Part shown: piece after piece, positions 15,224 through 54,617 of the stretch
Numbering within the stretch: the stretch's first letter is position 1
Layout of the letters: each line of letters begins with the position of its first letter
NCBI GenBank assembly: GCA_965217775.1
Contig: CBDCJH010000002.1
Coordinates: forward strand, 5,824,001-5,888,000
Direction: 5' to 3'
Source: Acidobacteriota bacterium
Lineage (GTDB): Bacteria > Acidobacteriota > UBA6911 > RPQK01 > JAJDTT01
DNA length: 64,000 bases
Made by a program: the position numbers and the translations under genes
Notes under the pieces: model-generated
Told to the model about the DNA's origin: nothing
The model's database searches: none
The model's input: only the letters and a program-made list of their open reading frames with translations

Positions 15224-16582
15224 TTACACGTCCGAAAGGAGCTCCACCTGCCCGGTGCTGTCGCCGATGCGCTCGACCGGAACTCCCAGTTGGCTCAGAA
15301 CCGTCATATAGAGGTTCGTCAGCGGAGTCCCCTCCTCGAACCCAACGTGACGGCCTCCCTTGATCCGTCCCGCGCCCCCGCCGGCCAACAGAAGGGGCAG
15401 GTTGCGGGGAGTGTGCAGGTCGCTGTCGCTCATGCCGCTTCCGTAGAGGAGGGTCACCTGGTCCAGCAGCGAGCCGTCCCCCTCGGGGGTGGATCGCAGC
15501 TGCTCCAGGAAATAGGCGAACATCCGCATGTGGAGAATGCTGACTCGAGTCAGTTTTTCCAGCTTTTCCGGATCGTTCTGGTGATGGGAGAGGGGATGGT
15601 GGGGATCGGGGACTCCGATCTCGGGATAGGTCCGCTGGCTCAGCTCCCGTCCCATCATGAAGGTGATGACGCGGGTGAGGTCCGACTGGTACGCCAGGAC
15701 CTGGAGGTCGATCATCAGCTTGGCATGCGCTTCGAAGCTGCCGGGGATCCCGGCGGGTCGATCCAGCACCGCCGCCTGCCTGCCGGCTTGGGTTTCCGCG
15801 ATCTGGATCCTCCGCTCCACGTCCCGAACCGCGTCCAGGTATTCGACCAGCTTGTTGCGGTCGCCGGCGCCGATCCGCGATTGCAGCCGGGCCGCTTTCC
15901 GGGTGACCGAATCCAGAATGCTTCGTTTGGTCCGGATTCGGCGGAGCCGCTCGGCCGGGTCGGTGCTCTCCTGGTCGCCGAAGAGGCGTTCGAAGACCGC
16001 CCGGGGGTTGTTCTCCGTGGGCAGGGGAGTGGTGGAGTTCCGCCAGGAGAGCGTGTTGATGTAGGAGCAACTGTAGCCGACGTCGCAGGCTCCCGCCAGG
16101 TCGGTCGCCTCCAGTCCCAATTCCAGCGACGCCAGTTGTGTGTGCCGGCCGTATTGGCCAGCCGCGATCTGGTCGAACGAGACTCCGGCTTCGACCCCGG
16201 CCCCCTCCGTCGGCTTCACGTGTACGCCGGTCAGAAACGCGCCCCCGATCCGTCCATGTCCACCGGCGGGTTCGCCGGGCAGCGCCACGGCCGGCTCGTT
16301 GCTGAGTCCGGTCAAGACCAGAATGCGGTCCTTGAACGGAGTCAACGGGTCCAGGATGGGGGTGAATTCGAACTCGGCTCCCTGGGCTGCAGGGGTCCAA
16401 CTCTCCATCACCGCTCCATGAGGCACATAGACCACTCCCAGACGGTCCGCCGGGGGACTCGTCCCGGCACGTCCGGCGGCCAAGGCCGGCACCATACTGT
16501 CCAACAGGGGCAGTCCGATGGCGGCGCCCAGCCCGCGGAGGAACGTGCGGCGGGGCAGGGAGATCTTGCGGATGATCCTCAT
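15224..16582 (-). CDS. DUF1552 family protein (Tat-like signal)
   Basis: LPRRTFLRGLG...LPLLDSM, CDVGYSCSY, NPRAVFERLFG and HHPLSHH motifs; overlaps the DUF1592 gene. Confidence 0.88.
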   Translation of the reverse strand: MRIIRKISLPRRTFLRGLGAAIGLPLLDSMVPALAAGRAGTSPPADRLGVVYVPHGAVMESWTPAAQGAEFEFTPILDPLTPFKDRILVLTGLSNEPAVALPGEPAGGHGRIGGAFLTGVHVKPTEGAGVEAGVSFDQIAAGQYGRHTQLASLELGLEATDLAGACDVGYSCSYINTLSWRNSTTPLPTENNPRAVFERLFGDQESTDPAERLRRIRTKRSILDSVTRKAARLQSRIGAGDRNKLVEYLDAVRDVERRIQIAETQAGRQAAVLDRPAGIPGSFEAHAKLMIDLQVLAYQSDLTRVITFMMGRELSQRTYPEIGVPDPHHPLSHHQNDPEKLEKLTRVSILHMRMFAYFLEQLRSTPEGDGSLLDQVTLLYGSGMSDSDLHTPRNLPLLLAGGGAGRIKGGRHVGFEEGTPLTNLYMTVLSQLGVPVERIGDSTGQVELLSDV

Positions 16583-18969
16583 GGTCGCGATCTTTTCATT
16601 CGAAACGGGCGACTCTTGACGATGCCCAGAATCAGGGCCGACCAGCGGTAGTTGGACGGCGCCGCTTCCCTCATGATCTCACGGATGGCCGGCATGTCAT
16701 AGGGTTCGACCCCGCGGCCCACGGCATAGGTCAGGAGCTTGCCGGTGAGAGTCTCGACGAACTCCTGGCGGCGGCTCAGAATCAGACTCCTGAGATCAGC
16801 GGGACCTTGAACCGTGGTGCCGTCCGGCAGCGTCGCCTGGGTATCGATGGGAACATCGCCCTGGTCGCGGTCGCGCCACCTGCCGACGGCGTCGAAATTC
16901 TCCAGCGCGAAACCGAGGGGGTCCATCAGGCGGTGGCAGCTCGAGCAGGCCGGGTTCCTGGAATGCTGCTCCATCAGCTCCCGAGTCGAAGTGGGACGAT
17001 CCATCTCGCCATGCTCCGGCAACTCGGGCACGTTGGCCGGCGGAGGAGGGACCCGGGTTCCCAGAATGTTCTCCAGCAGCCACTTGCCCCGCAGCACCGG
17101 CGAAGTGCGGGTGGCGTAGGAAGTGACAGTCAGGATGCTGCCCTGACCCAGCAGGCCCCGGCGCCGCTCATCTTGCAGTTTCACCTTTCGAAAGTGGTTC
17201 CCGTAGACTCGGGGAATTCCGTAGTGCCGGGCCAGACGTTGGTTGACAAAGGTGTAGTCGGCGTTCAGCAGGCCGGTCACGCTCCGATCGAGTCGCAGTT
17301 GGCTCTCCAGGAACAGCTCCGTCTCCTGCCGGAGCGCCTCCCGAAGATTGTCGTCCCATTCCGGGTACCGGTTCTCGTCCGGGGTCACGGCCCGGAGGTT
17401 TCGGAGATGCAGCCACTGGGTTGCGAAGTTCGTCACCAGGGCCTTGGACCGGGTGTCGGCGAGCATCCGCCTGACCTGGACTTCCAGCTCGTCGGGATCG
17501 CTCAGCCTCCCATCGGCCGCGGCCCCCAGCAGCACCTCGTCGGGGACGCTGCTCCAGAGGAAGAAGGACAGCCGGGATGCCAAGTCCAGGCCGCTGAGGT
17601 TGAAGGCGGTCGACGGCGGCGCCGTCGCCGGGTCGCGCTCGAGCCGGAACAGGAACTCCGGATCGACCAGGATCCTCTCCAGCACCGACTGGATGCCGGT
17701 GTCGAAGCCGCCTCGGCTTCGGCCCTCCCGGTAGAACTCGAGCAAGGGTTCGATGTCGTCGTTCGTCACCGGCCGACGATAGGCACGGCGGGCCAGGTTG
17801 GCCAGGATCCGCCGGGCGCAGTCCAACTCGTCGGCTTCTCCCGCCGAGAGCGGACGGCAGATGAAGATTCGCCTGCGACTGGGAGTGTCACCGGAGCCCT
17901 GAACCCGAATGGGTCCGTCGATCCGGAGGCTGCGCACGCCCCAATCGGAATAGCCGCCGCGCAGACTGCCGACGGGCAGCCGCGCCGGGCCCAAGCCCTC
18001 GGGCGCCGGCGTTCTCTGGAGGAACGAAACCCCCACCGTCCGGGTCCCCGCCCCGGCCGAAAACCGGACCGTCGGATCCGGCGCCGCCGGCTGCCCGTAA
18101 GCTGAGCTCCGGTCGTACCACTCCAGACGAATGAGCCGGAGCCGCTTCCCGTCCAAACGGACATCCAGTTCCCGAGTTTGGCTGGTTCGGCGCCGTTGGA
18201 GTGAGATCGTCAGCACGTACTCGCCGTCCAGCGGGAAACGATGACGGATCGCCAGTCCTCCTCCGGAACCGAACGGGAGCTCCTCGCTCATGCGGCCGGA
18301 CTGCACTGCGAGCGGCGACGTCGTGTAAGTGGTGGCTGCGGGGTTCAGCGCGGGATCGCCGACGACGAGCCGGCTGATCTTCCGGGCCGCCGACAGGTAT
18401 CTTTCCACGAGCAATGGAGAGAAGGAGAGGGTATCGGCGATGGTGTCGAAGCCGAACGCCAGATCGTCGGGCGGCAACAGCGATGGACCGTCGATCTCCA
18501 GCGCCAGCAGGTCCCGAATGGAATTGACGTATTGGGTACGGGTCAGGCGGTAGGCCGCCGGCCGGCCCGGGTCGGGATCGTTCTCCGCCGCCCGGTCGAG
18601 CTCCGATTCCAGCCAGGAGCTGAACGCCGAGCGGTCGTCGACCGGCGGACGGGGCATCCCCTCCGGCGGCATCACCCCGGTTCTGAGCTGGCGCACCACC
18701 TTCTCCCAGACCGGAGCGTCGTCACCGACCCGAGCCAGGTCCAAATGATCGAACTCGACTCCGGCGGTCTTGAGTTGCCGGTTGTGACAACTGGCGCAGT
18801 AGAGGTCCAGGAGCGCCCGGTAAGGGGTCGGCGGCGTTGAGCCAGGGGTGGAAGTTTGCAGCCCGAGTCCGGCGCCGGCACTCCCGGAGGCGCCTTTGCC
18901 CGATGCTTGCGGCTGAAGGGTCCCGGCCAGGAAGAGTCCCAGACAGGCAACGATTATCCTGGAAATCAT
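16579..18969 (-). CDS. DUF1592/1588/1595-type c-type cytochrome-like protein
   Basis: Signal peptide, CASCH and CSSCH heme motifs, LASRLSFFLWSSVPD, TSPVLRGKW and LENFDAVGRWR. Confidence 0.88.
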   Translation of the reverse strand: MISRIIVACLGLFLAGTLQPQASGKGASGSAGAGLGLQTSTPGSTPPTPYRALLDLYCASCHNRQLKTAGVEFDHLDLARVGDDAPVWEKVVRQLRTGVMPPEGMPRPPVDDRSAFSSWLESELDRAAENDPDPGRPAAYRLTRTQYVNSIRDLLALEIDGPSLLPPDDLAFGFDTIADTLSFSPLLVERYLSAARKISRLVVGDPALNPAATTYTTSPLAVQSGRMSEELPFGSGGGLAIRHRFPLDGEYVLTISLQRRRTSQTRELDVRLDGKRLRLIRLEWYDRSSAYGQPAAPDPTVRFSAGAGTRTVGVSFLQRTPAPEGLGPARLPVGSLRGGYSDWGVRSLRIDGPIRVQGSGDTPSRRRIFICRPLSAGEADELDCARRILANLARRAYRRPVTNDDIEPLLEFYREGRSRGGFDTGIQSVLERILVDPEFLFRLERDPATAPPSTAFNLSGLDLASRLSFFLWSSVPDEVLLGAAADGRLSDPDELEVQVRRMLADTRSKALVTNFATQWLHLRNLRAVTPDENRYPEWDDNLREALRQETELFLESQLRLDRSVTGLLNADYTFVNQRLARHYGIPRVYGNHFRKVKLQDERRRGLLGQGSILTVTSYATRTSPVLRGKWLLENILGTRVPPPPANVPELPEHGEMDRPTSTRELMEQHSRNPACSSCHRLMDPLGFALENFDAVGRWRDRDQGDVPIDTQATLPDGTTVQGPADLRSLILSRRQEFVETLTGKLLTYAVGRGVEPYDMPAIREIMREAAPSNYRWSALILGIVKSRPFRMKRSRP

Positions 18970-19050
18970 GAATTCCCGACCGACTGTGTTCAAAGTATTA
19001 TGGCGACGGCCTGCGATGGCCCGCAAGCGCTTCGCAAGGGTTCGACTGGG

Positions 19051-20577
19051 ATGAATTTCAATCCAAGCAGAGACGGTGGCGCCCGATTCCAAGGGCCAAC
19101 CAGCATATCGCCTTTGCGTACCCTTGGTCTTCTCGGTCTGGTGTTCCTGGTAGTGCGACTCGATATGCCGGCGGACGCCGCTGGCCGGATTTCTCCGAAT
19201 CGCCTGGTGGAGGCCGCCAAGTCAGGTGACGCCGAGGCTTTGCGATCTCTGCTGGCCGTGCATGCGGACGTGAATCAGCGTCAGGCCGACGGCGCCACGG
19301 CGCTGCACTGGGCGGCCCACCGGGACGACCTGACAAACGCGGTTCTGCTGATCGAGGCCGGAGCCGACGTGAAGGCTTCCAACGATTTTGGAGTACGGCC
19401 CCTCTGGCTGGCCTGCGTCAACGGGAGCGCCCGCATGGTGACGGTTCTGCTTGGAGCCGGAGCCGATCCCAACGCCGCTCCCTCCAGCGGCGAGACGCCT
19501 CTTATGCACGCGGCCCGCAGCGGTTCGACGGACGCGATCAAACTCTTGCTGATGCATGGCGCAGAGGTGAACGCCAAGACTCCTTGGGAGGAGCAGACGG
19601 CATTGATGTGGGCGCTGGCGGAGAAACATACAGAAGTTTCCCGCACCCTGATCGAGCATGGCGCTGAGGTTTCCGCACGTTCCAAGTACGGCTTCACGCC
19701 ACTGCTGTTTGCCGCTCGCGCTGGCGACCTCGACGGTGCCCGCACCTTGTTGGCGGAGGGAGTGGACCCGAACGAAACGGCTTCCGGCGGTGAAAGTGCG
19801 CTGGTGGTGGCGACGGTCCGTGGGCACGTGCCCTTTGCCCTTTGGTTGCTCGAGCGGGGGACGGACCCGAGCTCCGACGGCTCGGGATACACGGCTCTGC
19901 ACTGGGCCGCTGGCTCATGGGAGACGGAGATGACCGGTCCCAAGGGGATCGTGGCGCGTCGCGGCCACGAGTGGGGCGCCATGCGAGGCCTGCAGGAGGG
20001 CAAGCTGGAACTGATTCTCGCGCTGTTGGAGCGGGGAGCGGACCCCGACGCCAAGCTCGTGAAGCATCCTCCCCGGTTCGGCTACACGGCCGACCGGCAG
20101 AGGCCGGTGGGGGCGACCCCCTTCCTGCTGGCGGCCAGGGCCGGAGACGCCCGCGTCATGCAGGTTCTGGCGAAGGCGGGCGCCTCGCCACGGCTGGCTG
20201 CTGACGACGGGACGACGCCCCTGATGGCGGCGGCCGGCGTGGGTCGAAACTTGACCGAGAGCCGGGTGACCGAAGAACAGTCGTTGCGCGCGGCGCGGAT
20301 CGCCCTGGATTTGGGCGCCGACGTAAATGCCGCGAACCAGGACGGGGACACGGCTCTTCACGGTGCAGCCCGCATCAAATCCCCCGCTCTGGTGCAATTG
20401 CTGGTGGACCACGGCGCCGAGGTGAACGTGAGCAACCGGAAGGGGCAGACACCCCTGTTCGTCGCCCGGCACTATTTCCATCCCGGCTCTCCGCCGCTCC
20501 CGGTCCCAAGCGAGACTGCGGATCTGCTGCGCCGGCTGGGTGCCCGGAAAACGTTTTCAGAGGGAGTTACGGAATGA
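19051..20577 (+). CDS. secreted ankyrin-repeat protein
   Basis: Many G-TALH/TPL..AA..G..GAD/EVN repeats after a hydrophobic N-terminal segment. Start is uncertain. Confidence 0.9.
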   Translation: MNFNPSRDGGARFQGPTSISPLRTLGLLGLVFLVVRLDMPADAAGRISPNRLVEAAKSGDAEALRSLLAVHADVNQRQADGATALHWAAHRDDLTNAVLLIEAGADVKASNDFGVRPLWLACVNGSARMVTVLLGAGADPNAAPSSGETPLMHAARSGSTDAIKLLLMHGAEVNAKTPWEEQTALMWALAEKHTEVSRTLIEHGAEVSARSKYGFTPLLFAARAGDLDGARTLLAEGVDPNETASGGESALVVATVRGHVPFALWLLERGTDPSSDGSGYTALHWAAGSWETEMTGPKGIVARRGHEWGAMRGLQEGKLELILALLERGADPDAKLVKHPPRFGYTADRQRPVGATPFLLAARAGDARVMQVLAKAGASPRLAADDGTTPLMAAAGVGRNLTESRVTEEQSLRAARIALDLGADVNAANQDGDTALHGAARIKSPALVQLLVDHGAEVNVSNRKGQTPLFVARHYFHPGSPPLPVPSETADLLRRLGARKTFSEGVTE

Positions 20578-20757
20578 CGTTATCCCGCCGGCCGGGGTCC
20601 GACGAAGTCATGAGAGCAACAGATGCATGGTCCCCGCGGTAGGCATGATGAGGCTGGTGGAAGTTCCCGGTCTTCGGCCAAGGCATGAATCCAGCCTCCG
20701 CAGGTAAGTCCGAGCGAGGATGGCCGGTCTCGCATCCCCCCGTTCGAAGAACCTTCA

Positions 20758-21669
20758 CTACGGGTTGGACATGCGCATCAGAAGTCGATCTCGCCGATCG
20801 TCTAGAACTCGCTTCAGGTACTCATGTCTTTCTTTGGGGTCCATCTTGAAGGATCGCCGCAACGCGCGCCCAAGGCTGCCAGCCTTCTTCAGTTCGACCA
20901 GCATGCGATTCTCGAGCCTCTCGTCTCTGGGCTTGTAGCTGTCGATTCTAGCTTTCCGGTGAGGATGAGCCTTGTAGAACTCATCCATCGTCATTCCTTT
21001 TGCCTCGGCCTCGACCTCGGCCCACATGAGACCTTGGACGTGGCTTTCCTGATGTGGATCCAGTCTCTGCATCAGGGCCATGGCGGCATCACGGCCTTTG
21101 TTGTCAAGAATGTCCGGGTCGGCCCCGGCGTTGAGAAGCGCCATCATGACCTCCTCGCCCTTGTCCAGAATCATGGCAAGATGTAGCGGCGTTCTGCCTT
21201 GTACATCTTGAACATTGGGGTCCGCACCGGCATCCAACAGCGGCTGGATCTCGAAGATGTTCTTGGCGATGTGCAACGGCGTTACATCATTGCATCCTCC
21301 GAGGCCGGCCGTATCCGGATTGGGGTTTCCCTGCGCGACGGCCTCCTCAAGCGCCTCGTCGCAAGGTTGGAATCTCTCCATTCTCGCAAGGAATCTCTCC
21401 ATTCTAAGGTCAAAAGCATCTTTCCCTCTGCCATCGCCATCCCGCTTGACCACGGAGCGGCGCTCGACGGGAAGCATCGGCCTTTCGAAAGTCCTGTCGG
21501 AGCGTCCGGGTGGCGATGAAGGGGTCGGCTCAGGAGACAGCAGAACATCCTCGTTTGCCAGCTCATCTGGAGTTGTCGCCTCGTCCTGTTGCAGAACGCG
21601 GTTGTAGAGGTAAATCACCACTGGCACGATCAAGATGATCAGGCCAACCGTGCCGAGATTCTTCCGCAT
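20758..21669 (-). CDS. membrane-anchored protein with short ankyrin-repeat region
   Basis: AGGAGG RBS before MRKNLGTVGLIILIV (transmembrane); TPLHIA, GADPNVQDVQGRTPLHLA and GADPD repeats; lower GC than flanks. Confidence 0.8.
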   Translation of the reverse strand: MRKNLGTVGLIILIVPVVIYLYNRVLQQDEATTPDELANEDVLLSPEPTPSSPPGRSDRTFERPMLPVERRSVVKRDGDGRGKDAFDLRMERFLARMERFQPCDEALEEAVAQGNPNPDTAGLGGCNDVTPLHIAKNIFEIQPLLDAGADPNVQDVQGRTPLHLAMILDKGEEVMMALLNAGADPDILDNKGRDAAMALMQRLDPHQESHVQGLMWAEVEAEAKGMTMDEFYKAHPHRKARIDSYKPRDERLENRMLVELKKAGSLGRALRRSFKMDPKERHEYLKRVLDDRRDRLLMRMSNP

Positions 21670-21872
21670 GTGGACCTCCTTTCGATGCTCTTGGGCCTCG
21701 CATCCGGACCCACGCTGGTTTCGACGCGCCCCTTTTTGTTTGATCAATCGCATCGACAGTCTAGTCGCGCCGGGATGAACTGATCAGATTTCAGCAAACC
21801 CGCTCCAGAGCGGAGGCTCTCCCGGCCCTCCGTTCGGGAAATCTCTCGGTCTCTGTCGTCTATACAGGGCCT

Positions 21873-22856
21873 TCAAACGGAAATCTGTTCGACGAGGTTG
21901 CGGCTGACGCGACGACGGCGCCGGGTGTAGATTTGGGTGGTGCGGGGATGGGCGTGGCCGGCCAGGTACTGGACGTCTTCGAGTGGCACGTTCTGGCTCA
22001 GCAGATCCTTGATCACCAGAACCCGGAACGAGTGGGGCGAGAGGATCTTCGGCAACCCGGCAGCCTTGAGCCGGCGCTTGAGCATCTGCTGCACGGCGAG
22101 AGGCGACATTGTCCGATCGGTCAACGGGCTGGAGCGTCGCTCTCCAGCCCGAAACAACGGCGAGGCCGTGGACGCGTCGATGAGGCCGGCCCCTTGGAGG
22201 TAGGCCGCGATCCACTCGTCCAGGTCGTGACGCACCGGGACCTCCCGGGACTTGCCCCCTTTTTCCGCAAAACGAAGCGACCGGTAGTTGCCGTTGTCCC
22301 GCAGGTCCTGCATCCGGAGCCGGCTGATGGCCCCGACCCGGGCGCCGGTGTAGATGAGCGTCCCCAGGACTGCCCGGTCCCGGAGCCCGAACAAGTCGTG
22401 GGTCTTGATGGAGGCGAGGAGACGTCTGGCCTGTTCGACGGTTGCCTCGGGCGTCCGTCCCTCGCCGAAGGGGTGACGCACCCCCCGGACCGAATGAAAC
22501 GGATTGAGCAACACCGCCTGCCGAGCCACCAGGACGTCGAAAAAATGCCGCAGCGCCGCCAGGGCCTGGTTCTTGGTCGGCGCCCGGTGGGGGAGTTCGT
22601 CCAGGAACCGGCCGGCCAGCCCGGGCGTCACCTGGCGCAGCTCCAGACCCTCATCCTCGCACCAGGCTAGAAATCTGCTCACCTGATGGGCGTAGGCGGT
22701 CCGGGTGTGCGGGTTCGAGAGCCGAGCCCGGAAGAACTCGTCGGCCGCGAAGCAGGCTGCCTTGCCGGCGCGCACAAGGATCGCCGGGAAAGCCCCTTGG
22801 AGCTCTGTTTCTACCGGCGAATCGGGAGTTTTCAGCGCGAGTTTCTGAGCGTCCAT
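21873..22856 (-). CDS. tyrosine recombinase/integrase (XerC/D-like, non-IntI)
   Basis: Complete catalytic set: TGAR (R), EKGGK (K), HSFR (H-x2-R), LAGHA (H), TTQIY (Y). N-terminal SAM-like NPHTRTAY. No obvious IntI insertion patch. Confidence 0.93.
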   Translation of the reverse strand: MDAQKLALKTPDSPVETELQGAFPAILVRAGKAACFAADEFFRARLSNPHTRTAYAHQVSRFLAWCEDEGLELRQVTPGLAGRFLDELPHRAPTKNQALAALRHFFDVLVARQAVLLNPFHSVRGVRHPFGEGRTPEATVEQARRLLASIKTHDLFGLRDRAVLGTLIYTGARVGAISRLRMQDLRDNGNYRSLRFAEKGGKSREVPVRHDLDEWIAAYLQGAGLIDASTASPLFRAGERRSSPLTDRTMSPLAVQQMLKRRLKAAGLPKILSPHSFRVLVIKDLLSQNVPLEDVQYLAGHAHPRTTQIYTRRRRRVSRNLVEQISV

Positions 22857-22860
22857 AATA

Positions 22861-22888
22861 GATAAGTATAATATACTTTATCGTAATC
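22861..22888. other. dif-like recombination site 1 (GATAAGTATAA-TATACT-TTATCGTAATC)
   Basis: 11-6-11 layout with ATAA/TTAT inner arms as in Xer dif sites; AT-rich patch 4 bp upstream of the integrase ATG. Confidence 0.7.
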
Positions 22889-22960
22889 TAAAATACGCCC
22901 CCGACTCCCTGATATTCGGCTCCGGACCTCGCCCGGAGCCGGCCCCCTCCTTCCCAACCT

Positions 22961-22991
22961 GGTGAGCCCATTCGGGCGACAAAATCACATT
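22961..22991 (+). promoter_or_regulatory. shared upstream motif, copy 1
   Basis: GGTGAGCCCATTCGGGCGACAAAATCACATT; 26/31 identical to 23640-23670. Confidence 0.6.
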
Positions 22992-23033
22992 TACCCCTGA
23001 CGGGATCATCCCAACCCGGAGGAGGTCGATGCC

Positions 23034-23603
23034 ATGAGACATCGGACAAGAAAGAATGGAGGAGGGCTCAGGAACACCACGGCGGCGGGACTCGTCCCCC
23101 TGTTGCTTTTCGCGAGTGTGCCAGGCTGCACTGCCAGACACATACCGGACTGGTCCACGGTGCAGGCTGTGAAGCCAAGCACCAAGACGGAGGTGCAACT
23201 CTACGAAGACGAAGTCTTGCTGGGCCACGGCGAGAAGATCAAGGGTCGGATTCGATCGACCACAGACGAGTCCATCACATTGGATCTCAAAAATCGCATG
23301 GAAGCCCTCACCCTGCAGAAGTCGGCTGTGCGCAAGGTGTCGACTCACCGTCCCTTCTGGAAGCGTCCGGCGGGGTGGCTCACCCTTGTGGGGGTCTCCA
23401 CATTTACGGCCATTTTTGGCAGCCATAACGACGTCGACCTATCCCCAGCGTGGTGGCTCCTCTTTATAAGCCCGCCTACTCTCCTTGGCTTTATTAGCTC
23501 ACCCAAAGAGCGAATCTACGAGGTCCCGCCCCAGCACAGGAATTCGTCCTGGTCGACAGGGTCGTCGGCGATCAAGGCTAAGGAGCTGAACCATTCAAAG
23601 TGA
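23034..23603 (+). CDS. exported/membrane hypothetical protein (possible lipoprotein; Sm-like beta domain plus transmembrane segments)
   Basis: GGAGG RBS; signal ending VPGC; beta-rich KIKGRIRSTTDESITL; two C-terminal hydrophobic segments. Confidence 0.75.
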   Translation: MRHRTRKNGGGLRNTTAAGLVPLLLFASVPGCTARHIPDWSTVQAVKPSTKTEVQLYEDEVLLGHGEKIKGRIRSTTDESITLDLKNRMEALTLQKSAVRKVSTHRPFWKRPAGWLTLVGVSTFTAIFGSHNDVDLSPAWWLLFISPPTLLGFISSPKERIYEVPPQHRNSSWSTGSSAIKAKELNHSK

Positions 23604-23639
23604 TTCGGAACTCCAGACACCGTGACTATTCCCGGTCCC

Positions 23640-23670
23640 GGTGAGCCTCTGCCGGCGAAAAAATCACATT
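23640..23670 (+). promoter_or_regulatory. shared upstream motif, copy 2
   Basis: GGTGAGCCTCTGCCGGCGAAAAAATCACATT, upstream of the second cargo gene. Confidence 0.6.
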
Positions 23671-23791
23671 GGTTGATGCGTACCTCCTGCCCTCTGTGGG
23701 GACGGTCCACGGGGGGCAGGAGCGCGATGACTCCGGGGCGACCGCGAGCGGCCTCGACGGGTGGCGGAATCACTTCAAGGAGGCAGACACC

Positions 23792-24328
23792 ATGAACACT
23801 CTCACCGGATGGCTCAGGACAATCACGGCCGCTGCGCTCATTTTCTTGCTGCTGTGCGTTCCCCAGACGCTCCATGCCGACATCGATGTCCGCGACGAAA
23901 TGACTTGGAAGGAGCTGGAGAGCCTGGTCGGACAGAGGGATGTCACCATCGCATTGAAGAAGGGCGGTGCCGTCCGGGGCGATATAGTGGCGGTTGTGGA
24001 CCACGGCATCCACCTCCAGTTCATCACCATGGCCACGGATCGGCAGAAGTACCCCGCAGGGACGCAAGTCTTGGTGCCCAGAGATGAGGTTGAAGAACTC
24101 CGCTTCGAAACCGAGGGGTTCGGATTGCGCGTTGCCGGTCTCCTTGCCGGTGGTTTTGGAGGAGGAGCTCTGGGAGCGGCCGCCGCAGGTAGATCTAGGG
24201 ATTGGGATTCCGCGGCGGATGCGATACTTATCGGCTGGATTGGCGGAACTGTGGCGGGCGGGTGGCTCGGTTACAAGCTGGGCAAGAAAGCGGATCTCCA
24301 GACACACATCATCATGATCGCCGACTGA
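23792..24328 (+). CDS. exported/membrane hypothetical protein (Sm-like domain plus glycine zipper)
   Basis: AAGGAGG RBS; signal peptide ending LHA; VTIALKKGGAVRGDIVAV; GLLAGGFGGGALG and GGTVAGGWLG glycine zippers. Confidence 0.8.
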   Translation: MNTLTGWLRTITAAALIFLLLCVPQTLHADIDVRDEMTWKELESLVGQRDVTIALKKGGAVRGDIVAVVDHGIHLQFITMATDRQKYPAGTQVLVPRDEVEELRFETEGFGLRVAGLLAGGFGGGALGAAAAGRSRDWDSAADAILIGWIGGTVAGGWLGYKLGKKADLQTHIIMIAD

Positions 24329-24413
24329 TGACCTCTACGGACCGCCGGAGACACGCGTCGCGGCGAGTCTTTCCATCGCGGGGAACGAATCCAGCACCAT
24401 CCGGAAGCGTACA

Positions 24414-24441
24414 GAGAACGAAAAAGCACTTTATCGGACTC
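24414..24441. other. dif-like recombination site 2 (GAGAACGAAAA-AGCACT-TTATCGGACTC)
   Basis: 24428-24473 matches 22875-22920 at 35/46 ungapped, in direct orientation. Confidence 0.65.
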
Positions 24442-24662
24442 TAACCCACGTCCCTGACCCCTTGATTTTCTGCGGCAGCTGATGCTGACCGGCCGAGACA
24501 GGCCTCTTTTGCTCTGGAGTTTCCCTCGATGCATTCTTGAATTACAGAAGGCGAGCGGGCCGAGTGGTGACGCACCCCCGGTCGGCTCTTAAGCTAACTC
24601 GACCTATGCCGGAGGAAGAGCCAACCTAGTATATATTCTATGTCCCCACTGGGGGATTGGCC

Positions 24663-24875
24663 ATGAGCTTCGAGCGAACCTGTGTTGGATGCCGAGACTT
24701 CCGGGTCGGTCCGGGTGATCAGCATTGCGAGCGCTACGGCGAGGTCACGAAGACCCTCTGGCGTTGGATGGAGTCGCGCCCCATTTCGCCCTTCCCCATG
24801 GCCCACCCCACCTTTCCCACCGTAGCCGACGAAGAACCCTCTGGGCTTTGGGGGAAAAACGTGACCAATGGGTAA
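24663..24875 (+). CDS. small hypothetical ORF with CxxC (possibly a fragment)
   Basis: GGGGGA RBS-like sequence; MSFERTCVGCRD; overlaps the start of the next gene. Confidence 0.3.
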   Translation: MSFERTCVGCRDFRVGPGDQHCERYGEVTKTLWRWMESRPISPFPMAHPTFPTVADEEPSGLWGKNVTNG

Positions 24876-26472
24876 ACCCGAGAATTCTCGTACGCTGCTG
24901 GCTCACCTGAGTTGGCGGTTTCATCCGCGAATGGAAGAGGTCGCCGTAGCGGCGCTGGTGCACATCCTCAACCGCTATCCTGCCTCAAGAGAAGGCTTGG
25001 ACGAACTTCTGGAGCGGACCGTACCGGACATGAGATTGTCAGCCCAGCCGTTCGAGAACGAGGTCTCCGCACCTGACGGTACCAGACCCGACGTGCTGCA
25101 GAAGGGAGATGACGGAAAGGAGCGGCTTTTCATCGAGGCGAAATTCTACGCGTCGCTAACTCCAAATCAGCCGGTTCCCTACCTGAAGCGGCTACCAACG
25201 AAGCGAGTCTCGGCGCTCATGTTGTTGGCCCCGTCCGGGCGGGTGAAAGAGCTCTGGCCGGAGTTGCTACGCAGGCTCGCCGATAGCGGCATGCCGTATT
25301 CCGATGTGGGGTTCTGTTGCGTCGCCATCGATGGGACAGGGAAGCATCTCCTCATCACGGACTGGACGAGGCTGCTGGAAAGCATGGAGGAACGGCTGGA
25401 GGCCTCCCAGTCCGGCCTTGCGGAGCTCCGACAACTCAGTGGGCTGGTGCAGTTCGCCGAGTCACGGGAAAGTAAGGCTGCGCGCCCCGGAGAGAAACTG
25501 GTCAGGCGGGTCACCGAGATCGGCAACGCGTCGGGCTGGCTGGACACGCATGGACTGAACGCTACACCTCGTGAGTACGGCTACGGGCGATACGCGCGCC
25601 TCGGTCAACGCTACGAGCTCGGCGTGTGGCTGGGGGTCAACTCGGCCTTGGATGAGGAGCGCGGTTCCCCACATCTGTGGGTGCACTGCGAGAAGTGGAG
25701 CAACGACGACGGCCGGCTCTGGAACGAACGCGTCAGGTCGGCGCTGAAGGATCGCATGAGCGCGAACGTCAAGCAGGAAGGCGATGAGCTATGGGTCGCG
25801 GTCGTCCCGGAGGGAGGCAAAGGGGCCGACGACTACGCGGCCGCACTGGAACGGATCGCCGGGATCCTGGACGAGCTTGCCGAGCCGCGGCTCGCGCGCG
25901 CCGACGTGCTCGCGGAGATTAGGCGCCGGTACGGGCAGCCCGTGATGAGCAACGCTCACCGCGCCGAGTATGTCGAGGCGCTCGTGGCTCTCGCGCTCAG
26001 GGAAAGCGGCTGGACCCCCAAGGCGCCGTGGGAAGTCTGGCACTTCGAGAATGAATCGGGCGTGAGGCTGAAGCTCAAGCACTCCGCAGCGGTGCAGTCA
26101 TGGGGGAACGGCGAAATCCAGAGTTCTCCGCGTTTCGACATCGCCCCCGGAAAGGTGTACTGGGATGAAAAGAAGGGGCGCTGCGTAGAGCACCGCGGTC
26201 GCCTCGCCAACATCCACGTGTTCGCTTGGCACGGGGAAACGGGCGAGTCGGCAGACCAAGGAGATCCGGCGAGCTGGGAGTTCTACGTGGTCCCGGAACC
26301 CGACTTGCCCGAGCAGAAGACGATTGCCTTGAAGGCGCTTCAAGGCCTGACGTCCCCGTGTGGCATCGAGGGCCTGGCGGCTGCGGTCGATGGGCACGGT
26401 GCGACGGGTGGACGCTACACGGCGCACAGGGGGAAGGCACTCGGCTGGCGAACACGTGACGGAGAGACATGA
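24868..26472 (+). CDS. PD-(D/E)XK nuclease-superfamily protein with a second, degenerate restriction-endonuclease-like domain
   Basis: N-terminal ENE...RPDV...FIEAKF...NQP..Y; C-terminal SNAHRAEYVEALV...QSW...FDIAP...VFAWH...WEFYVVP. Confidence 0.7.
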   Translation: MGKPENSRTLLAHLSWRFHPRMEEVAVAALVHILNRYPASREGLDELLERTVPDMRLSAQPFENEVSAPDGTRPDVLQKGDDGKERLFIEAKFYASLTPNQPVPYLKRLPTKRVSALMLLAPSGRVKELWPELLRRLADSGMPYSDVGFCCVAIDGTGKHLLITDWTRLLESMEERLEASQSGLAELRQLSGLVQFAESRESKAARPGEKLVRRVTEIGNASGWLDTHGLNATPREYGYGRYARLGQRYELGVWLGVNSALDEERGSPHLWVHCEKWSNDDGRLWNERVRSALKDRMSANVKQEGDELWVAVVPEGGKGADDYAAALERIAGILDELAEPRLARADVLAEIRRRYGQPVMSNAHRAEYVEALVALALRESGWTPKAPWEVWHFENESGVRLKLKHSAAVQSWGNGEIQSSPRFDIAPGKVYWDEKKGRCVEHRGRLANIHVFAWHGETGESADQGDPASWEFYVVPEPDLPEQKTIALKALQGLTSPCGIEGLAAAVDGHGATGGRYTAHRGKALGWRTRDGET

Positions 26473-28250
26473 TGAGAATCAGAGACCTGATGTTCATGTT
26501 GAGTAGTGTCGCGGTGACAGCCGCTTGCGCAGGACCGCAAGAGAACGCAACGCTCGAGCGAACCGCTGCTACCGAGACGGTGTACATGAATGGCCGAATC
26601 CATACCCAGGACAAGGATCTGCCCTGGGCCGAGTCGCTGGTCACCAGAGGTGACCGAATCGTCCTCGTAGGCTCTGACGAGGACGCCCTGCGGTACGCTG
26701 GTCCGGACGCCAGGCTTGTAGACCTGCAGGGCCGATTCGTGATGCCGGGGATAATCGACGCGCACACCCACCCCGGCTTGATCAGCATCTGGGCCGACCT
26801 GTCGGGACTGGATGAAACCGCTGGAGAGAACGAAGAGCCCGCCACACCCGACAGGATGCCATCCAGACCGCGGGAGGCGACGCTGGCCTGGTTGCAGCAG
26901 TACGCCGACGATCACCCGTTCACTCTCGTGATCACACAGGCGGCGTGGGACGTCGCCACCTATCTGCCTGACGGCCCCCACAGAAGAGACCTGGATGAGA
27001 TTTCAAGCGTAAGACCCATTCTGTTGTACGACAACTCGGGGCACAGCATCTGGGTCAATTCCGCAATGCTCCGGATCCTGGGCATCGACAGGAACACCCC
27101 GGATCTCAGCGAGAACCTGTCGTATTTCGTGCGCGACGAGACCGGAGAGCCCACCGGCTGGCTCAAGGAGTTCGTCCTGACGCCCTACATGGGTGGCAGG
27201 TTGGTGCCGGATTCCGATGAACTGAAGGAACGGATGCTGAAGTACTTGAACTACATGTCGAGCAAGGGCGTAATGACATTGTGGGACGCCGGCAACTTCA
27301 ACATGGACGACGCGGTGTACCAGGTCGCGCATGACATCGCAAGAGAAGGCAATCTACCGTTGCGTTGGGAAGGGTCATACCACATATGGGCGCCGGATCA
27401 AATCGACATTGCAGCGGAATCCCTGCTCCGGCTGCGGGAAAGGTACAGCCACAGCAAACTGCAGTTTAACACCATCAAGATCCACTACGATGGCATGCAG
27501 GATATTCTGACCGCCGGCATGCTGGAGCCCTACGTCACGGACCCCGACAACTACGGCGGCGTGCTGTTCACGCCGCAGCGATTGAGCAGCTTCATGCAGG
27601 AGCTGGACGTCCACGGCATCGATCTGCACCTGCATGCGGCGGGCGACCGTGCGACCAGGAATATTCTCGACGCCGTCGAGCAGGCGCGGGGCGCGCTGGG
27701 ACGGCCTTTGGGAATCGAGGTCACGCTGAGTCATCTGTTCTCGGTCGCCGACAGCGACGTCGAACGTTTTCCCGAGTTGAACGTCCACGCCAATTTCACG
27801 CCACACTGGTTCGGCGGAACGGTGTTCGGGGACGCCAGACAGATCAACGTCGGTCCGGAACGAGCCGGCCGCTCTCAGCTCGTCGGGCATTTCGTGCGGC
27901 GACAGGCCAGTGTTTCGTTCTCCAGCGACGTCGTGCACAACCCGCGGCGGGTGAACCCCTTCATCGGCATCGAAATGAGCATCACGCGAAAGGCGATAGA
28001 CAGGGCCGACGCCGACGCCCTGCCGCCACTCGATGCCGGAATTTCATTGGAGCAGGCGCTGGCGGCCTTTACCGTCAACGGCGCTGCGCAACTCGGATTG
28101 GAAGAAGAAATCGGTGCCCTAAAGGCCAGCTTGCTGGCGGACTTCATCGTCCTGGCAGAGAATCCGTTCGAAACCGACGTGGAGAGAATCCACGCCATCG
28201 AGGCCAGCGCCACAATCGTGGCCGGTGAGCTGCGAAGCGGTAGCCTGTAA
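26469..28250 (+). CDS. amidohydrolase 3 (YtcJ-like) family lipoprotein
   Basis: Lipobox VTAAC; MPGIIDAHTH, IKIHYDG, HLHAAGD, FSSD and LADFIVL motifs. Confidence 0.88.
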   Translation: MMRIRDLMFMLSSVAVTAACAGPQENATLERTAATETVYMNGRIHTQDKDLPWAESLVTRGDRIVLVGSDEDALRYAGPDARLVDLQGRFVMPGIIDAHTHPGLISIWADLSGLDETAGENEEPATPDRMPSRPREATLAWLQQYADDHPFTLVITQAAWDVATYLPDGPHRRDLDEISSVRPILLYDNSGHSIWVNSAMLRILGIDRNTPDLSENLSYFVRDETGEPTGWLKEFVLTPYMGGRLVPDSDELKERMLKYLNYMSSKGVMTLWDAGNFNMDDAVYQVAHDIAREGNLPLRWEGSYHIWAPDQIDIAAESLLRLRERYSHSKLQFNTIKIHYDGMQDILTAGMLEPYVTDPDNYGGVLFTPQRLSSFMQELDVHGIDLHLHAAGDRATRNILDAVEQARGALGRPLGIEVTLSHLFSVADSDVERFPELNVHANFTPHWFGGTVFGDARQINVGPERAGRSQLVGHFVRRQASVSFSSDVVHNPRRVNPFIGIEMSITRKAIDRADADALPPLDAGISLEQALAAFTVNGAAQLGLEEEIGALKASLLADFIVLAENPFETDVERIHAIEASATIVAGELRSGSL

Positions 28251-28551
28251 GCGGCTGACCAGGCGACGACCGGACGATCCGCATACCGCAGGCGGACCGG
28301 GCGTTCACGCTCAGGCTAGTCGCCGTCTACGTCCGGGCTTCCCGGACCACGGCCACGTCACGGGGCCTGCCCTTGGGCCTGTCACCGCCGTGCCGGTGGC
28401 GCCGCGACCCGTCGGCGACCGCGGGGGGGCCGCCCGTCGCGCCGTACGTGGTGGCGGGTCGTCACATCGGCGTGAAGGTGACCGCTGCCCGGGTGAAGTA
28501 GAGTTCCGTCCGAGCCTCGAATCCCGAGTCGGCGCCGAACAGCAACCGCGC

Positions 28552-28580
28552 CGTTCCCCCCGCACAGGCGGGGATGGACG
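28552..28580 (+). CRISPR. solitary type I-E-like CRISPR repeat (not an array)
   Basis: CGTTCCCCCCGCACAGGCGGGGATGGACG has the GTTCCCCGC-N4-GCGGGGAT stem-loop of I-E repeats. No second copy and no cas genes seen. Confidence 0.4.
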
Positions 28581-28633
28581 ATGAGTTCTTCATCGCCGCT
28601 CTGATTTGGTCGGTTTCCTCTGATGGACACTCT

Positions 28634-28661
28634 ACGTCCGTTAACTGTAATTAACGGACGC
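28634..28661. other. dif-like site 3 (ACGTCCGTTAA-CTGTAA-TTAACGGACGC)
   Basis: Perfect 10-bp inverted repeat with a 6-bp spacer; arm TTAACGGAC resembles TTATCGGAC of site 2. Confidence 0.55.
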
Positions 28662-28737
28662 TCTCCCTTGATCCGTAGACTTCCGTTTTGGGAATCGGCC
28701 TTGTCAATGGCCATTGACACTTTATTGCAGGGGGGAG

Positions 28738-28822
28738 TGCGAAAGGGGGGACTCGAACCCCCACGGGGAGTAACCCCACCAGATCCTAAATCTGGCGCGT
28801 CTGCCAATTCCGCCACTTTCGC
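28738..28822 (-). tRNA. trnL: tRNA-Leu(TAG)
   Basis: GCGAAAG acceptor stem, anticodon arm CCAGA-TTTAGGA-TCTGG, long variable arm, GGTTCGAGTCC T-loop; CCA not encoded. Confidence 0.96.
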
Positions 28823-28917
28823 TGAAAAAAACATTCTAACGCAAGCGCACGATCTACAAGGGCGGCTGCCTGCTGCGGGCGGAGCGCCGTGTGATATTCT
28901 CCACTTCTCGGTCGTGG

Positions 28918-28994
28918 CGGGGCATGGCGCAGTCTGGTAGCGCGCCTGCTTTGGGAGCAGGAAGTCGGGGGTTCAAATCCCTCTGCCCCGACCA
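28918..28994 (+). tRNA. trnP: tRNA-Pro(TGG)
   Basis: CGGGGCA...TGCCCCG ACCA; anticodon arm CCTGC-TTTGGGA-GCAGG; GGTTCAAATCC T-loop. Confidence 0.97.
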
Positions 28995-29082
28995 TTTTCC
29001 CGGAGTTGAGCGTCCAACGACCTGACCTCATCGGCGTACCGGCCGCGCTTATCTCAAGTGACATCGTCGTAGGAAGAATATT

Positions 29083-30561
29083 GTGAGACCCGCTTCGTTC
29101 CTGTGCTGCCTGTCTCTTCTCATCCTCTCGGCGCCGCCGGCGACTTTGGCCGTTGCGAAATGGTTGCCGGAACCGGCGGGAGAGCCTCGCCTGGTCCATA
29201 TTGGTCAAAGGGTCGGAGGCTGGGGCCGCATGGGGTCCCTCTTTCTCCATGACGAACACCTGGTCGCCCGGTCACGGGGCCTGCAGCCTGTCATGGGAAC
29301 GGTCAGGAAGCATCCCGAGAACCCGATCCTCGTGGCCGATCGTCCCTGGGAGGCCGGTTCCGTCGGGTACGCCTGCGTCATCTACGACGGTGAGGAGAAG
29401 CTCTACAAGATGTGGTATGAGTCCCGTCTCAACCCGGGACAGCTCAGCGGTCCCAACCTGGAGCAGGGGCGCTGCCTTTACGCCACCTCCCGAGATGGGT
29501 TGGTCTGGGAGAAACCGATCCTCGGAATCGTCGAAAGCCAAGGTTCCCGGGAGAACAACATCGTCTTCGCCGGTCCGGAAGGGGCTCGCAACAAGGTCTA
29601 CTGGGTCATCAAGGATCGAGCCGACCCGGATCCGGCCAGACGCTACAAGATGATGTTTCATCTCTGGGACCTTCGGGGCCGCGGCGTGGGCATTGCCTTC
29701 TCGGCGGACGGTCTGCACTGGAAGACGGACGCCCGGGTGAACCTTCACGGGGGATTCGACACCCACAACATCTTTTTCTGGGATCACCGGGTGGGACAAT
29801 ACGTGGGCTATTTCCGAACCCGATTGCTGGGACGGCGGTTCATCGCCCGCGCCACGAGTCCCGATGCCTTCCACTGGTCTCTTCCGGTGAGCGTCCATGG
29901 TCCCGACGATCGCGACCCCCACGACTTCGACCTCTATACCCCAGGCGTCTTCAAATACAGCCGCGCCGCGGACACTTATGTCCTTTACACCGCGGCCTTC
30001 GATCGGGCTGCCGACCGGCTCTTCGGTCAGTTGGCGGTCAGCCGGGATGGAATCGACTGGCACCGGTTTCGTGCTCCTTTCCTGCCCTTGGGTTCGAAGG
30101 GGGATTGGGATGCCGGGTCGATTTATCCCGCACCCTCCCAGGTCTCCATCGGGGACGACACCGCCATCTACTATCGGGGCGATCATGTCGGTCACGGAAC
30201 CGGAGGCCGGCCCGGCATCGGTGTGGCGTTTCTGGACGAAGGCGGATTCGTCGCTTGGGAGGCCGAGACCCGGGGGACTCTCACCACCCATCTGTTGGCA
30301 GTCGGAGGAAGACGGGAGTCCCTCTACGTGAACGGGGATGCTTCCGGGGGATCGATCCGCGCCGAATTGCTCGATGTGGACGGGGAGGTCATTCCAGGCT
30401 TCTCCAGGCAGGAAAGCGACCCCATCAGCGGAAGGGGCTCGCAGTTGTTGATCCAGTGGAAGGGAAAGCCCAGATTGGGTGACGCCGTGCTGGAACCATT
30501 TCGCCTCAAGCTGTATCTGGAACGGGCGCGAGTCTATGGCCTCGGGTGTGCCCGGCCTTGA
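29083..30561 (+). CDS. secreted five-bladed beta-propeller, glycoside-hydrolase-like protein
   Basis: Signal peptide; repeated S-x-D-G-x-x-W boxes (TSRDGLVW, SADGLHW, SRDGIDW); paralogous to 55208..56704. Confidence 0.7.
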   Translation: MRPASFLCCLSLLILSAPPATLAVAKWLPEPAGEPRLVHIGQRVGGWGRMGSLFLHDEHLVARSRGLQPVMGTVRKHPENPILVADRPWEAGSVGYACVIYDGEEKLYKMWYESRLNPGQLSGPNLEQGRCLYATSRDGLVWEKPILGIVESQGSRENNIVFAGPEGARNKVYWVIKDRADPDPARRYKMMFHLWDLRGRGVGIAFSADGLHWKTDARVNLHGGFDTHNIFFWDHRVGQYVGYFRTRLLGRRFIARATSPDAFHWSLPVSVHGPDDRDPHDFDLYTPGVFKYSRAADTYVLYTAAFDRAADRLFGQLAVSRDGIDWHRFRAPFLPLGSKGDWDAGSIYPAPSQVSIGDDTAIYYRGDHVGHGTGGRPGIGVAFLDEGGFVAWEAETRGTLTTHLLAVGGRRESLYVNGDASGGSIRAELLDVDGEVIPGFSRQESDPISGRGSQLLIQWKGKPRLGDAVLEPFRLKLYLERARVYGLGCARP

Positions 30562-54594: not shown

Positions 54595-54617
54595 ACAATA
54601 TCAAAGGAGAATCAGTC

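Follow-up and report, generated by a model that had tools for sequence, protein, structure and literature searches.

Integrons are the textbook example of site-specific gene collection, and depend on a single integrase family and on folded single-strand sites. Here we describe a 64,000-nucleotide stretch of a soil Acidobacteriota genome (GCA_965217775.1, contig CBDCJH010000002.1, positions 5,824,001 to 5,888,000; hereafter the window, numbered from its first letter) in which an intact Xer-like tyrosine recombinase, here called Rec, stands beside a short core site, A1, at the head of a small array of genes. On balance, and by a little more than an even chance, we favour the view that Rec and A1 form a self-contained Xer/Cre-like recombination module that has multiplied within its genus, where recombination at the site spacers would assemble and exchange site-bounded blocks of genes. 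The layout is integron-like, yet it is not an integron. The anatomy of the unit, its conservation, the co-variation of site and recombinase clade, the arrays and the breakpoints were all observed in the sequences compared here. These comprise the window's own genome (G000, 6.43 Mb, contigs C1 and C2) and eight congeners (G001 to G008), together a nine-genome genus; six genomes of the sister genus; and 80 loci of the Rec family taken from named genomes. Sites are quoted in window orientation.

Rec (21873 to 22856, minus strand, 327 amino acids) has the composition of a simple Xer-like recombinase: a SAM-like core-binding domain (Phage_int_SAM_1, E 2.7e-09), a catalytic domain with the R-K-H-R-H-Y residues (Phage_integrase, E 6.1e-23) and no arm-binding domain. 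Its N-terminal ~45 residues are conserved in the family, yet no domain model matches them. The residues R173, K199/K202, H275, R278, H301 and Y310 are invariant across 14 aligned family members. Rec passes none of the XerC, XerD, XerA and XerS equivalog models, its best NCBIfam scores being 120.1 bits for XerC (cut-off 335) and 118.7 for XerD (cut-off 330), with 98.2 for XerA (cut-off 220) and 43.1 for XerS (cut-off 267). Nor is it an IntI: it scores 59.4 bits against the integron-integrase model TIGR02249 (cut-off 265) and 23.4 against PRK15417 (cut-off 435), and a genome-wide search with the integron-integrase models returned nothing above cut-off (32.8 and 25.7 bits). The closest solved chain is Escherichia coli XerD (1a0p, E 1.5e-14), and no Cre chain is among the five solved relatives of Rec at E ≤1e-5. 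The same genome encodes XerD (384.6 bits, above cut-off), a XerC-like gene (328.5 bits), one further intact Rec paralog (61% identical; clade B, C2:2003835-2004782) and at least seven Rec fragments. It also holds four clusters of three adjacent tyrosine recombinase genes (C2:1689-1692, 2396-2399, 2807-2810 and 3539-3542 kb), which we take to resemble 'recombinase in trio' elements.

A1 (22861 to 22888, plus strand) is an 11-6-11 core site, GATAAGTATAA (22861-22871) TATACT (22872-22877) TTATCGTAATC (22878-22888), whose arms are complementary at 8 of 11 positions by manual count and which is separated from the Rec start codon (22856-22854) by 4 bp. A sigma-70-like match on the minus strand (22892-22865; -35 TTTAGA, -10 TATACT) lies inside and beside A1, with its predicted start approximately at the ATG. 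Because the site lies within the putative Rec promoter, binding by Rec would probably also shut off its own gene. On the other side, A1 continues on the plus strand into an extension and leader region (22889 to 22991), in which the conserved extension runs to ~22920 and a leader motif occupies 22958-22991. The extension is conserved downstream of at least 20 site copies, and the leader motif forms a 34-nt repeat with 23637-23670. A2 (GAGAACGAAAA AGCACT TTATCGGACTC; 24414 to 24441, plus strand, with an extension to ~24473) lies in direct orientation 1553 bp on, start to start, at the border between modules 1 and 2. It repeats A1 and the 33 nt after it over 61 nt at 70% identity, the strongest direct repeat within 21500-29500. 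Its left arm and spacer match poorly; A2 is a worn copy of the internal type of site described below, with part of the left flank kept.

The third site, A3 (28635 to 28660, plus strand), is a perfect 10-6-10 palindrome, CGTCCGTTAA CTGTAA TTAACGGACG, with arms complementary at 10 of 10 positions. It marks where the variable DNA stops on the right, with the 3′ end of a tRNA-Leu(tag) gene 76 bp away, and belongs to a palindrome family distinct from A1 and A2, the 'CTGAAA' family, whose members mark the 3′ ends of modules. When the whole 6.43-Mb genome was searched with a profile of 14 sites, all from other genomes and with the window's two rows excluded, A1 was recovered at E 2.7e-12 and A2 at E 2.3e-9, the sole window matches below E 5. 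Likewise, a genome-wide search with 11 A3-type palindromes, none from the same genome, found A3 at E 2.2e-6 on the plus strand, which is the array orientation.

The attC sites of integrons are imperfect palindromes of 60-140 nt that fold as single strands. No attC-like fold was found here in the 150-nt junction (z -0.34 against shuffles) or in the 118 nt before A2 (z -0.40). A1 and A2 make poor hairpins (z -1.9 and -2.3, with ~5% of shuffles as good), and A3 (z -7.0) and the internal sites (z -4.9) make strong short ones. An 11-bp stem with a 6-nt loop would give no two-armed site, and from the known behaviour of tyrosine recombinases, double-strand recombination would be the natural reading. 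The preliminary description of this stretch had proposed an intact R-K-HxxR-H-Y recombinase other than IntI, an 11-6-11 site 4 bp before its ATG, a second site 1.55 kb on in direct orientation and sites without attC hairpins; each of these agrees with what we find (z -0.3 for the whole junction). The third palindrome that it placed near tRNA-Leu is present, although in another palindrome family than A1 and A2.

The pairing of recombinase and site extends well beyond this genus. Among 8000 scored candidates, 2712 proteins belong to the Rec family at E ≤1e-20, and the 80 loci span Acidobacteriota, Planctomycetota, Binataceae, Dehalococcoidia, Latescibacterota and others. As the preliminary description had anticipated, homologs carry a conserved site upstream: among the 80 loci, 34 (in Acidobacteriota, Binataceae, Dehalococcoidia and others) have an inverted repeat of the form ATAA-N6-TTAT in the 130 nt that precede the start. 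Palindromes under a looser definition number ~40 per Mb in the window's own genome, which corresponds to fewer than one expected across those 10 kb. At 23 of these 34 sites at least 8 of 11 arm positions are complementary, often perfectly, as in TAGACGATAA AGTATG TTATCGTCTA. Planctomycetota loci have a different palindrome, GGAAATAA AGGGGA TTATTTCC and variants (in Rec orientation the spacer is reverse-complemented, TCCCCT), found 270-2000 nt upstream and usually ahead of a small gene that precedes Rec. The clade A site reads ...ATAA TATACT TTATCGTA, and that of the clade B paralog, 30 nt before its start, TTTACGGTAA CGTACT TTACCGGCAA; both arms change together between clades (GTACGATAA/TTATCGTAC, GTCCAATAA/TTATTGGAC). 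Three N-terminal Rec stubs in the window's own genome retain the same site immediately before their start. Since the site is conserved with Rec across phyla, and its arms and spacer shift with the recombinase clade, it looks like the cognate core site.

Between paralogous or orthologous loci, what is conserved is a unit of ~1.0-1.05 kb of DNA likeness that consists of the Rec gene, the site and 30-60 nt beyond. No conserved neighbour gene was found in the 80 loci, where the largest real recurring family is present in 5 of 80. At one Planctomycetes locus, on plasmid PALBO2 of Paludisphaera borealis (L154), two palindromes in direct orientation (4267-4292 and 6849-6874) with the same spacer, CGCCCT, flank the operon of small gene plus Rec; on that plasmid, the recombinase gene itself may be an excisable unit.

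Within the genus, sites are more numerous than Rec genes. A sequence model covering site and extension (R1) gave the following numbers of sites, set here beside the number of Rec matches: 13 and 5 in G000, 5 and 4 in G001, 7 and 2 in G002, 4 and 2 in G003, 8 and 1 in G004, 4 and 1 in G005, 27 and 11 in G006, 6 and 2 in G007, and 0 and 0 in G008. Rec matches thus range from 0 to 11 per congener, at differing places, and Rec is absent or broken in G004, G005 and G008. Neighbouring sites no more than 15 kb apart are co-oriented in 19 of 21 pairs (manual count; binomial p ~1e-4, with related genomes that are not independent). The G006 island orthologous to that of the window has five co-oriented sites, and two more G006 arrays begin at broken Rec genes, the second array again with five sites. 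The recurring anatomy is Rec (reading outward), site, 35-60-nt extension, leader, one to several open reading frames (ORFs), A3-type palindrome, ~100-125 nt and the next site. In internal sites the arms are perfect over 10-11 bp, with compensating changes, and the spacer measures 7 nt (TTGCACT or GATCAAC); these sites keep a conserved left flank of their own, the A3 palindrome plus ~100 nt. Arrays also begin from a solo chromosomal site lacking Rec, as in G006 array 4 and at C2:1174.5 kb of the window's own genome, where the left flanks are conserved chromosomal genes, 92% identical between the species.

In the array cargo of G006, five of ten large ORFs encode leucine-rich repeat (LRR) proteins with signal-like N-termini, accompanied by small proteins of the M1 and M2 types described below; the array stretches of G006 also hold an MmeI-like methyltransferase piece and a PutA gene. 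Modules comprise one to several genes with their own leaders, and cargo orientation in congeners is mixed, some G006 ORFs facing Rec. Insertion sequence (IS) elements sit within the arrays, and one candidate cassette proved to be of this kind. It is a 1.66-kb element of G007 (L051 9993-11655), inserted precisely at the point between the start codon of Rec and its site, where it separates the gene from its promoter and site. It has inverted ends (GTTCTCATCCGGAAA) and a target duplication, and near-identical copies are present elsewhere (C2:1,999,565-2,001,223 in the window's own genome, and in G006). A 1.76-kb block, 98% identical at two G006 loci, also looks like an IS.

Comparisons between related loci place several breaks inside a spacer or right where a site ends. 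G006 array 4 and C2:1183.6 kb of the window's own genome are 94% identical through a 450-nt flank, the left arm, the spacer and TTAT, after which the right arms differ and likeness ends. G006 array 3 matches C2:1998.6 kb at 95% identity until the right arm ends, with no likeness beyond. The match between the M1 module of G001 and that of G006 array 2 starts at the first base of the site; the left flanks are unrelated and the left arms differ. One module is found at two unrelated places (G006 island 13037-14757 and C2:1862.0-1863.8 kb) with 83-86% identity; at both, a site forms its left boundary and an A3 palindrome its right one. Across these loci, left arms remain with their left context and right arms travel with the cargo.

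A further comparison comes from within the assembly itself. The whole of contig C1 (144 kb) is collinear with C2:5,152,009-5,303,614 at ~90-98% identity (roughly 95%), so C1 is either a second haplotype or DNA of a closely related strain that was binned together with this genome (contamination 7.47%). Together the two contigs provide a natural allele comparison for an M1/M2 locus at C2:5270-5281 kb. Between common flanks, the two contigs have 1.85 kb against 9.1 kb, and the right break coincides with the first base of an A3 palindrome. Elsewhere on C2, ~450 nt of left flank, the left arm and the spacer are duplicated 9.1 kb apart (C2:1,174,081-1,174,558 and 1,183,223-1,183,700), and the right arm and module that come after differ between the two copies; this duplication is not accounted for by simple core-site recombination.

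We propose the following mechanism. Rec alone would act on its cognate double-stranded 11-6-11 core site, which lies within its own promoter. Rec-less copies of that site, each with its 35-60-nt extension and often with an A3-type palindrome ~100 nt upstream, would have spread through the genus. Recombination at the site spacers would then insert, remove or swap blocks of one to several genes, with co-oriented arrays behind the Rec gene or behind a solo chromosomal site as the outcome. In this scheme Rec would be the enzyme, the exchange would be conservative site-specific recombination, and modules would pass through circles. The window would represent a small, old array, consisting of Rec, A1, M1-M2, A2, three genes, A3 and tRNA-Leu. 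At base, the family looks like a module of one enzyme and one site that serves resolution or replicon fusion, with arrays as a development within one genus. A bolder version is possible but doubtful: that Acidobacteriota possess a second, IntI-independent gene-collecting platform, descended from a plasmid resolution module, with a Xer-like recombinase, a promoter-embedded attI-like site, circular multi-gene modules with composite junctions (A3 palindrome, ~100 nt, core site, extension), co-oriented stacking and a rapidly changing stock of LRR proteins and of small proteins of the membrane or surface.

In the window, the array occupies an island that varies throughout the genus. It extends from the stop of the left-flank gene (ORF 18856..20577) to the 3′ end of tRNA-Leu (20578 to 28736), and tRNA-Leu(tag) itself (28737 to 28822, minus strand) is the fixed right border of the locus. 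All eight congeners align to the window at ~15178-20590 and again from ~28634-28736 onward, and are divergent in between. The island is empty in G007, where 9 nt lie between the stop codon of the left gene and the tRNA, and has differing content of 0.5-15 kb in the other seven: G004 and G008 have 1.6 kb and 0.5 kb of other DNA, respectively, and the islands of G001, G002, G003, G005 and G006 measure 6.7 to 15 kb with partly different content. The expectation of variable content among relatives is consequently upheld. Homology with G003 and G005 resumes at the first base of A3 (28634/28635), and A3, ~75 nt and the tRNA are common to G000, G005 and, in decayed form, G003. At the left border of the island, neither a site nor a tRNA-end repeat was found. 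Near the right border, the palindrome TGTCAATGGCCATTGACA (28698-28716, ~20 nt from the tRNA-Leu 3′ end) is present in seven of the nine genus genomes (one of them diverged) and missing from G006 and G007; it is native tRNA flank, outside the island. The half-site-like CACTTTATTG beside tRNA-Leu is likewise native sequence common to congeners, and so not a site remnant. The island locus has a GC content of 59-64%, and the window's GC-skew has no switch. Dips in GC to 0.55-0.59 (elsewhere ~0.63) at 39000-45000 and 52000-56000 are possibly other acquired segments.

Downstream of Rec, the island contains an ankyrin-repeat gene (20758 to 21753, minus strand; Ank_2 8e-12, Ank 1.6e-10), which is linked to Rec at the island locus in G001, G002, G005 and G006. 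Module 1 consists of M1 (23034 to 23603, plus strand), encoding a 189-residue small lipoprotein-like membrane protein, and M2 (23792 to 24328, plus strand), encoding a 178-residue small membrane protein. They have six and seven paralogs elsewhere in the genome, respectively. M1 matches no Pfam family and weakly resembles NCBIfam Lepto_7_Nterm (22.6 bits against a cut-off of 43); M2 has no family match. The label of membrane proteins, already given in the preliminary description, is based on the signal- or lipobox-like N-termini and the glycine-rich C-terminal hydrophobic stretches read from the sequences, although no family was matched. The leader motif, GGTGAGCCCATTCGGGCGACAAAATCACAT and variants, precedes genes of the M1/M2 families with or without a site (e.g., at C2:3890.3, 5277.4 and 5279.0 kb). 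It may be a promoter or regulatory element; a search of Rfam (E ≤1) over 20500-29100 returned only the two tRNAs, and no RNA-element match for the leaders.

Module 2 comprises, all on the plus strand, a 70-residue ORF (24663 to 24875), a 534-residue ORF (24868 to 26472) and an amidohydrolase gene (26469 to 28250; Amidohydro_3 3.7e-60). The 534-residue protein, earlier labelled a nuclease, has no Pfam or PADLOC match and yields only a weak, sub-threshold lead to PDDEXK_4, of the PD-(D/E)xK type (score 0.88), so that label stays unconfirmed. One paralog of the C-terminal third of this protein lies at C2:1,823,000-1,823,416, and an A3-type palindrome stands 200 nt after it. The gene fragment supposed to follow the amidohydrolase is no better substantiated, the three ORFs within 28250-28630 having no Pfam match. 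PADLOC found no defence genes among four cargo proteins. Every plausible gene between the window's sites is on the plus strand, reading away from Rec as had been claimed.

Several observations weigh against our reading. Firstly, no product of recombination, be it a circle, an empty site within a population or a joint read, was seen in the genome assemblies compared. That Rec acts on these sites is something we infer from linkage and co-variation only, in a genome with many other tyrosine recombinases. Since the spacers of A1, A2 and A3 differ (TATACT, AGCACT and CTGTAA), the window's own array is probably inactive now, and its three sites look inactive. Secondly, the array form is restricted in distribution. 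R1 found no site in the six sister-genus genomes; a second full site within 8 kb was found at none of 26 distant loci, and half-sites there numbered five against two expected, none convincing. The exact palindrome occurs, once or twice each, in 8 of 301 Acidobacteriota genomes, compared with 2 of 301 for the reversed control. Relatives at 52-57% identity are present one per record on complete plasmids of cultured Planctomycetes, beside repA or parDE, a setting that would fit multimer resolution better than gene capture. Thirdly, not all breaks respect the sites. The left break between C1 and C2 falls within the duplicated extension, likeness between the window and the orthologous G006 locus persists 130 nt beyond the A1 start, and a cargo swap at another Rec locus (L049 in G003 and L051 in G007) has no site at either end. 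Genes of the M families also occur without any site, and homologous recombination between repeats would likewise give breaks at repeat edges.

The central proposals of the preliminary description are therefore sustained in part. Gene capture at the recombinase's own double-stranded sites is consistent with the layout and with the signs of site-bounded exchange in this genus. Elsewhere, however, the family is single-site, and the single site outside the genus, together with plasmid-borne relatives, indicates that gene capture is not the general job of the family. Variable modules were predicted to break exactly at the spacers, which holds for several breaks at a spacer or site edge and fails for those away from sites. 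An integron-like layout is seen in the window and in G006, with co-oriented arrays of up to five sites, although congener cargo is not all co-oriented. On variation in natural populations, a metagenome scan with the 18-base A1 core was uninformative: its 48 matches were all in unrelated AT-rich DNA, none of the 48 with Rec, M1 or M2.

Among the alternatives, an ordinary genomic island deserves the most attention, although we consider it unlikely. Here, integrative elements would have accreted in tandem by tRNA-Leu, Rec would be the integrase of one such element and A1 its attachment site, and A2 and A3 would be junctions of integrase-less, cis-mobilisable relics, with no capture platform. Such a history would suit a block lying between a conserved gene and a tRNA 3′ end, empty in G007 and different in every congener. 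Clade-B Rec stubs with their own site ~290 nt from the same tRNA (G001 and G002), the frequency of Rec stubs (at least seven in the window's own genome) and the IS elements in arrays point the same way. The family, however, does not target tRNA genes: a tRNA lies within 8 kb of 2 of 60 family loci, one of which is the orthologous locus. This, and the absence of a tRNA-end repeat at the island's left border, led us to reject Rec as a tRNA-targeting integrase. Further, the left island end has no site either, Rec-proximal sites are full and often perfect palindromes instead of one-armed hybrids, and arrays also begin at Rec-less solo chromosomal sites (G006 array 4, C2:1174.5 kb). Accretion and the self-contained module overlap in mechanism; what separates them is whether Rec and its site form a permanent platform or arrive with every new element.

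We regard as distinctly improbable a second alternative, in which Rec and A1 serve single-site, plasmid-derived multimer resolution, as in Cre/loxP or XerS/difSL, together with self-repression. On this view no cassettes are captured; the Rec-less sites and arrays would represent degenerate remnants of Rec-site copies, along with 5′ leaders common to paralogous genes for surface proteins, which homologous recombination has shuffled. The single site of each locus outside the genus, relatives next to repA or parDE on complete plasmids, the overlap of site and promoter-like match, the M genes and leader motifs that occur without sites, and the breaks away from sites are all as this alternative would have it. 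It is less at ease with solo sites that have no Rec remnant on their left and a left flank of conserved chromosomal genes, and with internal sites that have a conserved left flank of A3 palindrome and ~100 nt. The perfect arms and compensating changes of internal sites argue for selection on the sites themselves. The behaviour of the arms, left ones staying with context and right ones going with cargo, and the co-orientation of 19 of 21 pairs also speak against it.

That these are dif-like sites used by the host XerC and XerD in the manner of pdif modules, or that A1 is the chromosomal dif and Rec incidental, is very improbable. The 11-6-11 geometry with ATAA and TTAT inner ends is that of dif, and both XerD and a XerC-like gene are present. 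However, the sites are bound up with Rec genes and differ from one Rec clade to another, there are 13 copies in the genome, and across congeners the number of sites follows that of Rec. With 0.85 Mb between it and the minimum of the cumulative GC skew, and ~2.1 Mb to the maximum, A1 is not at the terminus. Consequently, with the genome's own XerD and XerC-like gene, the multi-copy site and the distance of A1 from the skew extremes, we rejected A1 as chromosomal dif. G004, G005 and G008 have either no Rec or a broken one, so Rec is not the essential Xer. Lastly, despite the poor left arm and spacer of A2 and the weak folding of A1 and A2, it is scarcely credible that the three are AT-rich stretches that resemble sites by accident in a genome rich in GC, given their leave-out E-values genome-wide and their conservation across genomes and phyla.

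Comparison with known systems sharpens what is distinctive about the Rec-A1 module. As in integrons, a site lies directly upstream of a tyrosine recombinase and overlaps its promoter region, the array extends divergently from it, modules are separated by repeated sites that all face the same way, and cargo is highly variable among close relatives. Unlike integrons, the recombinase is not IntI, the window sites are short inverted repeats of double-strand type (10/11-6/7-10/11), modules are 1.5-9 kb with one to several genes, own leaders and mixed orientation, and most members of the Rec family have no array. Cre/loxP also places a recombinase beside a palindromic target, and Rec relatives occur once per plasmid near replication or partition genes; loxP, however, is 13-8-13, and Cre belongs to a different subfamily. 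The pdif modules of Acinetobacter plasmids, and integrative mobile elements exploiting Xer (IMEX), are bounded by dif-like 11-6-11 sites as well. They use the host XerC and XerD, with dif sites in inverted pairs, whereas the sites here are co-oriented, and are linked to and co-vary with a dedicated recombinase. Accretion of integrative and conjugative elements (ICEs) and cis-mobilisable elements also yields tandem arrays split by attachment sites, with one terminal integrase and integrase-less modules beside it. ICE integrases, however, bind arm sites and use a fixed attB that is often located within a tRNA gene; the domains of Rec are limited to the core-binding and the catalytic one, and its family has no link to tRNA genes.

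For a variable array headed by a recombinase other than IntI, the nearest precedent known to us is rAID-1 of Bacteroidales. As described, a XerD-like recombinase is accompanied by gene arrays with repetitive intergenic sequences, which the authors found reminiscent of integrons (bioRxiv 10.1101/471110). Its defining features there are a 5′ XerD-like recombinase >44% identical to that of B. fragilis, followed by at least two co-directional genes with ≤41% GC; the array is co-directional, downstream of the recombinase, AT-rich and contains immunity genes, and close homologs (>50% identity) of its recombinases were found only in Bacteroidales (bioRxiv 10.1101/471110). The two systems have in common a non-IntI recombinase of the XerD family that heads a variable array with repeated intergenic motifs. 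They are set apart, on description, by the array here being divergent from Rec and of 59-64% GC, with congener cargo that is mostly LRR and small membrane proteins. The single-recombinase systems XerS/difSL and XerH/difH resemble Rec in genetically linking one Xer-like recombinase to its own dif-like site (PMC2731167, PMC2965235). Those systems act once per chromosome, at the terminus, and are essential for housekeeping, whereas Rec is multi-copy, patchy and off the skew extremes, and scores 43 bits against the XerS cut-off of 267. In a literature search, which included the accessible part of PMC8138268, we did not find this family or the Acidobacteriota arrays described; this does not imply that they are absent from print.

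If our reading is correct, a Xer-like enzyme would be doing a job similar to that of integrons with plain double-strand sites, and such genome organisation would have arisen more than once. To our knowledge, the sole precedent is the little-studied rAID-1. The Rec-site pair is compact and widespread, relies on one protein, and has a target that is short and well defined, with spacer variants that occur in nature; systems of this type have been useful as genetic tools. Should the arrays instead prove to be relics rearranged by homologous recombination, the analysis would still have cleanly annotated a large recombinase family that has no name, along with its target. If true, the proposed exchange of site-bounded gene blocks would provide a handle on variation in surface and secreted proteins among the Acidobacteriota of soil, which are abundant and hard to culture.

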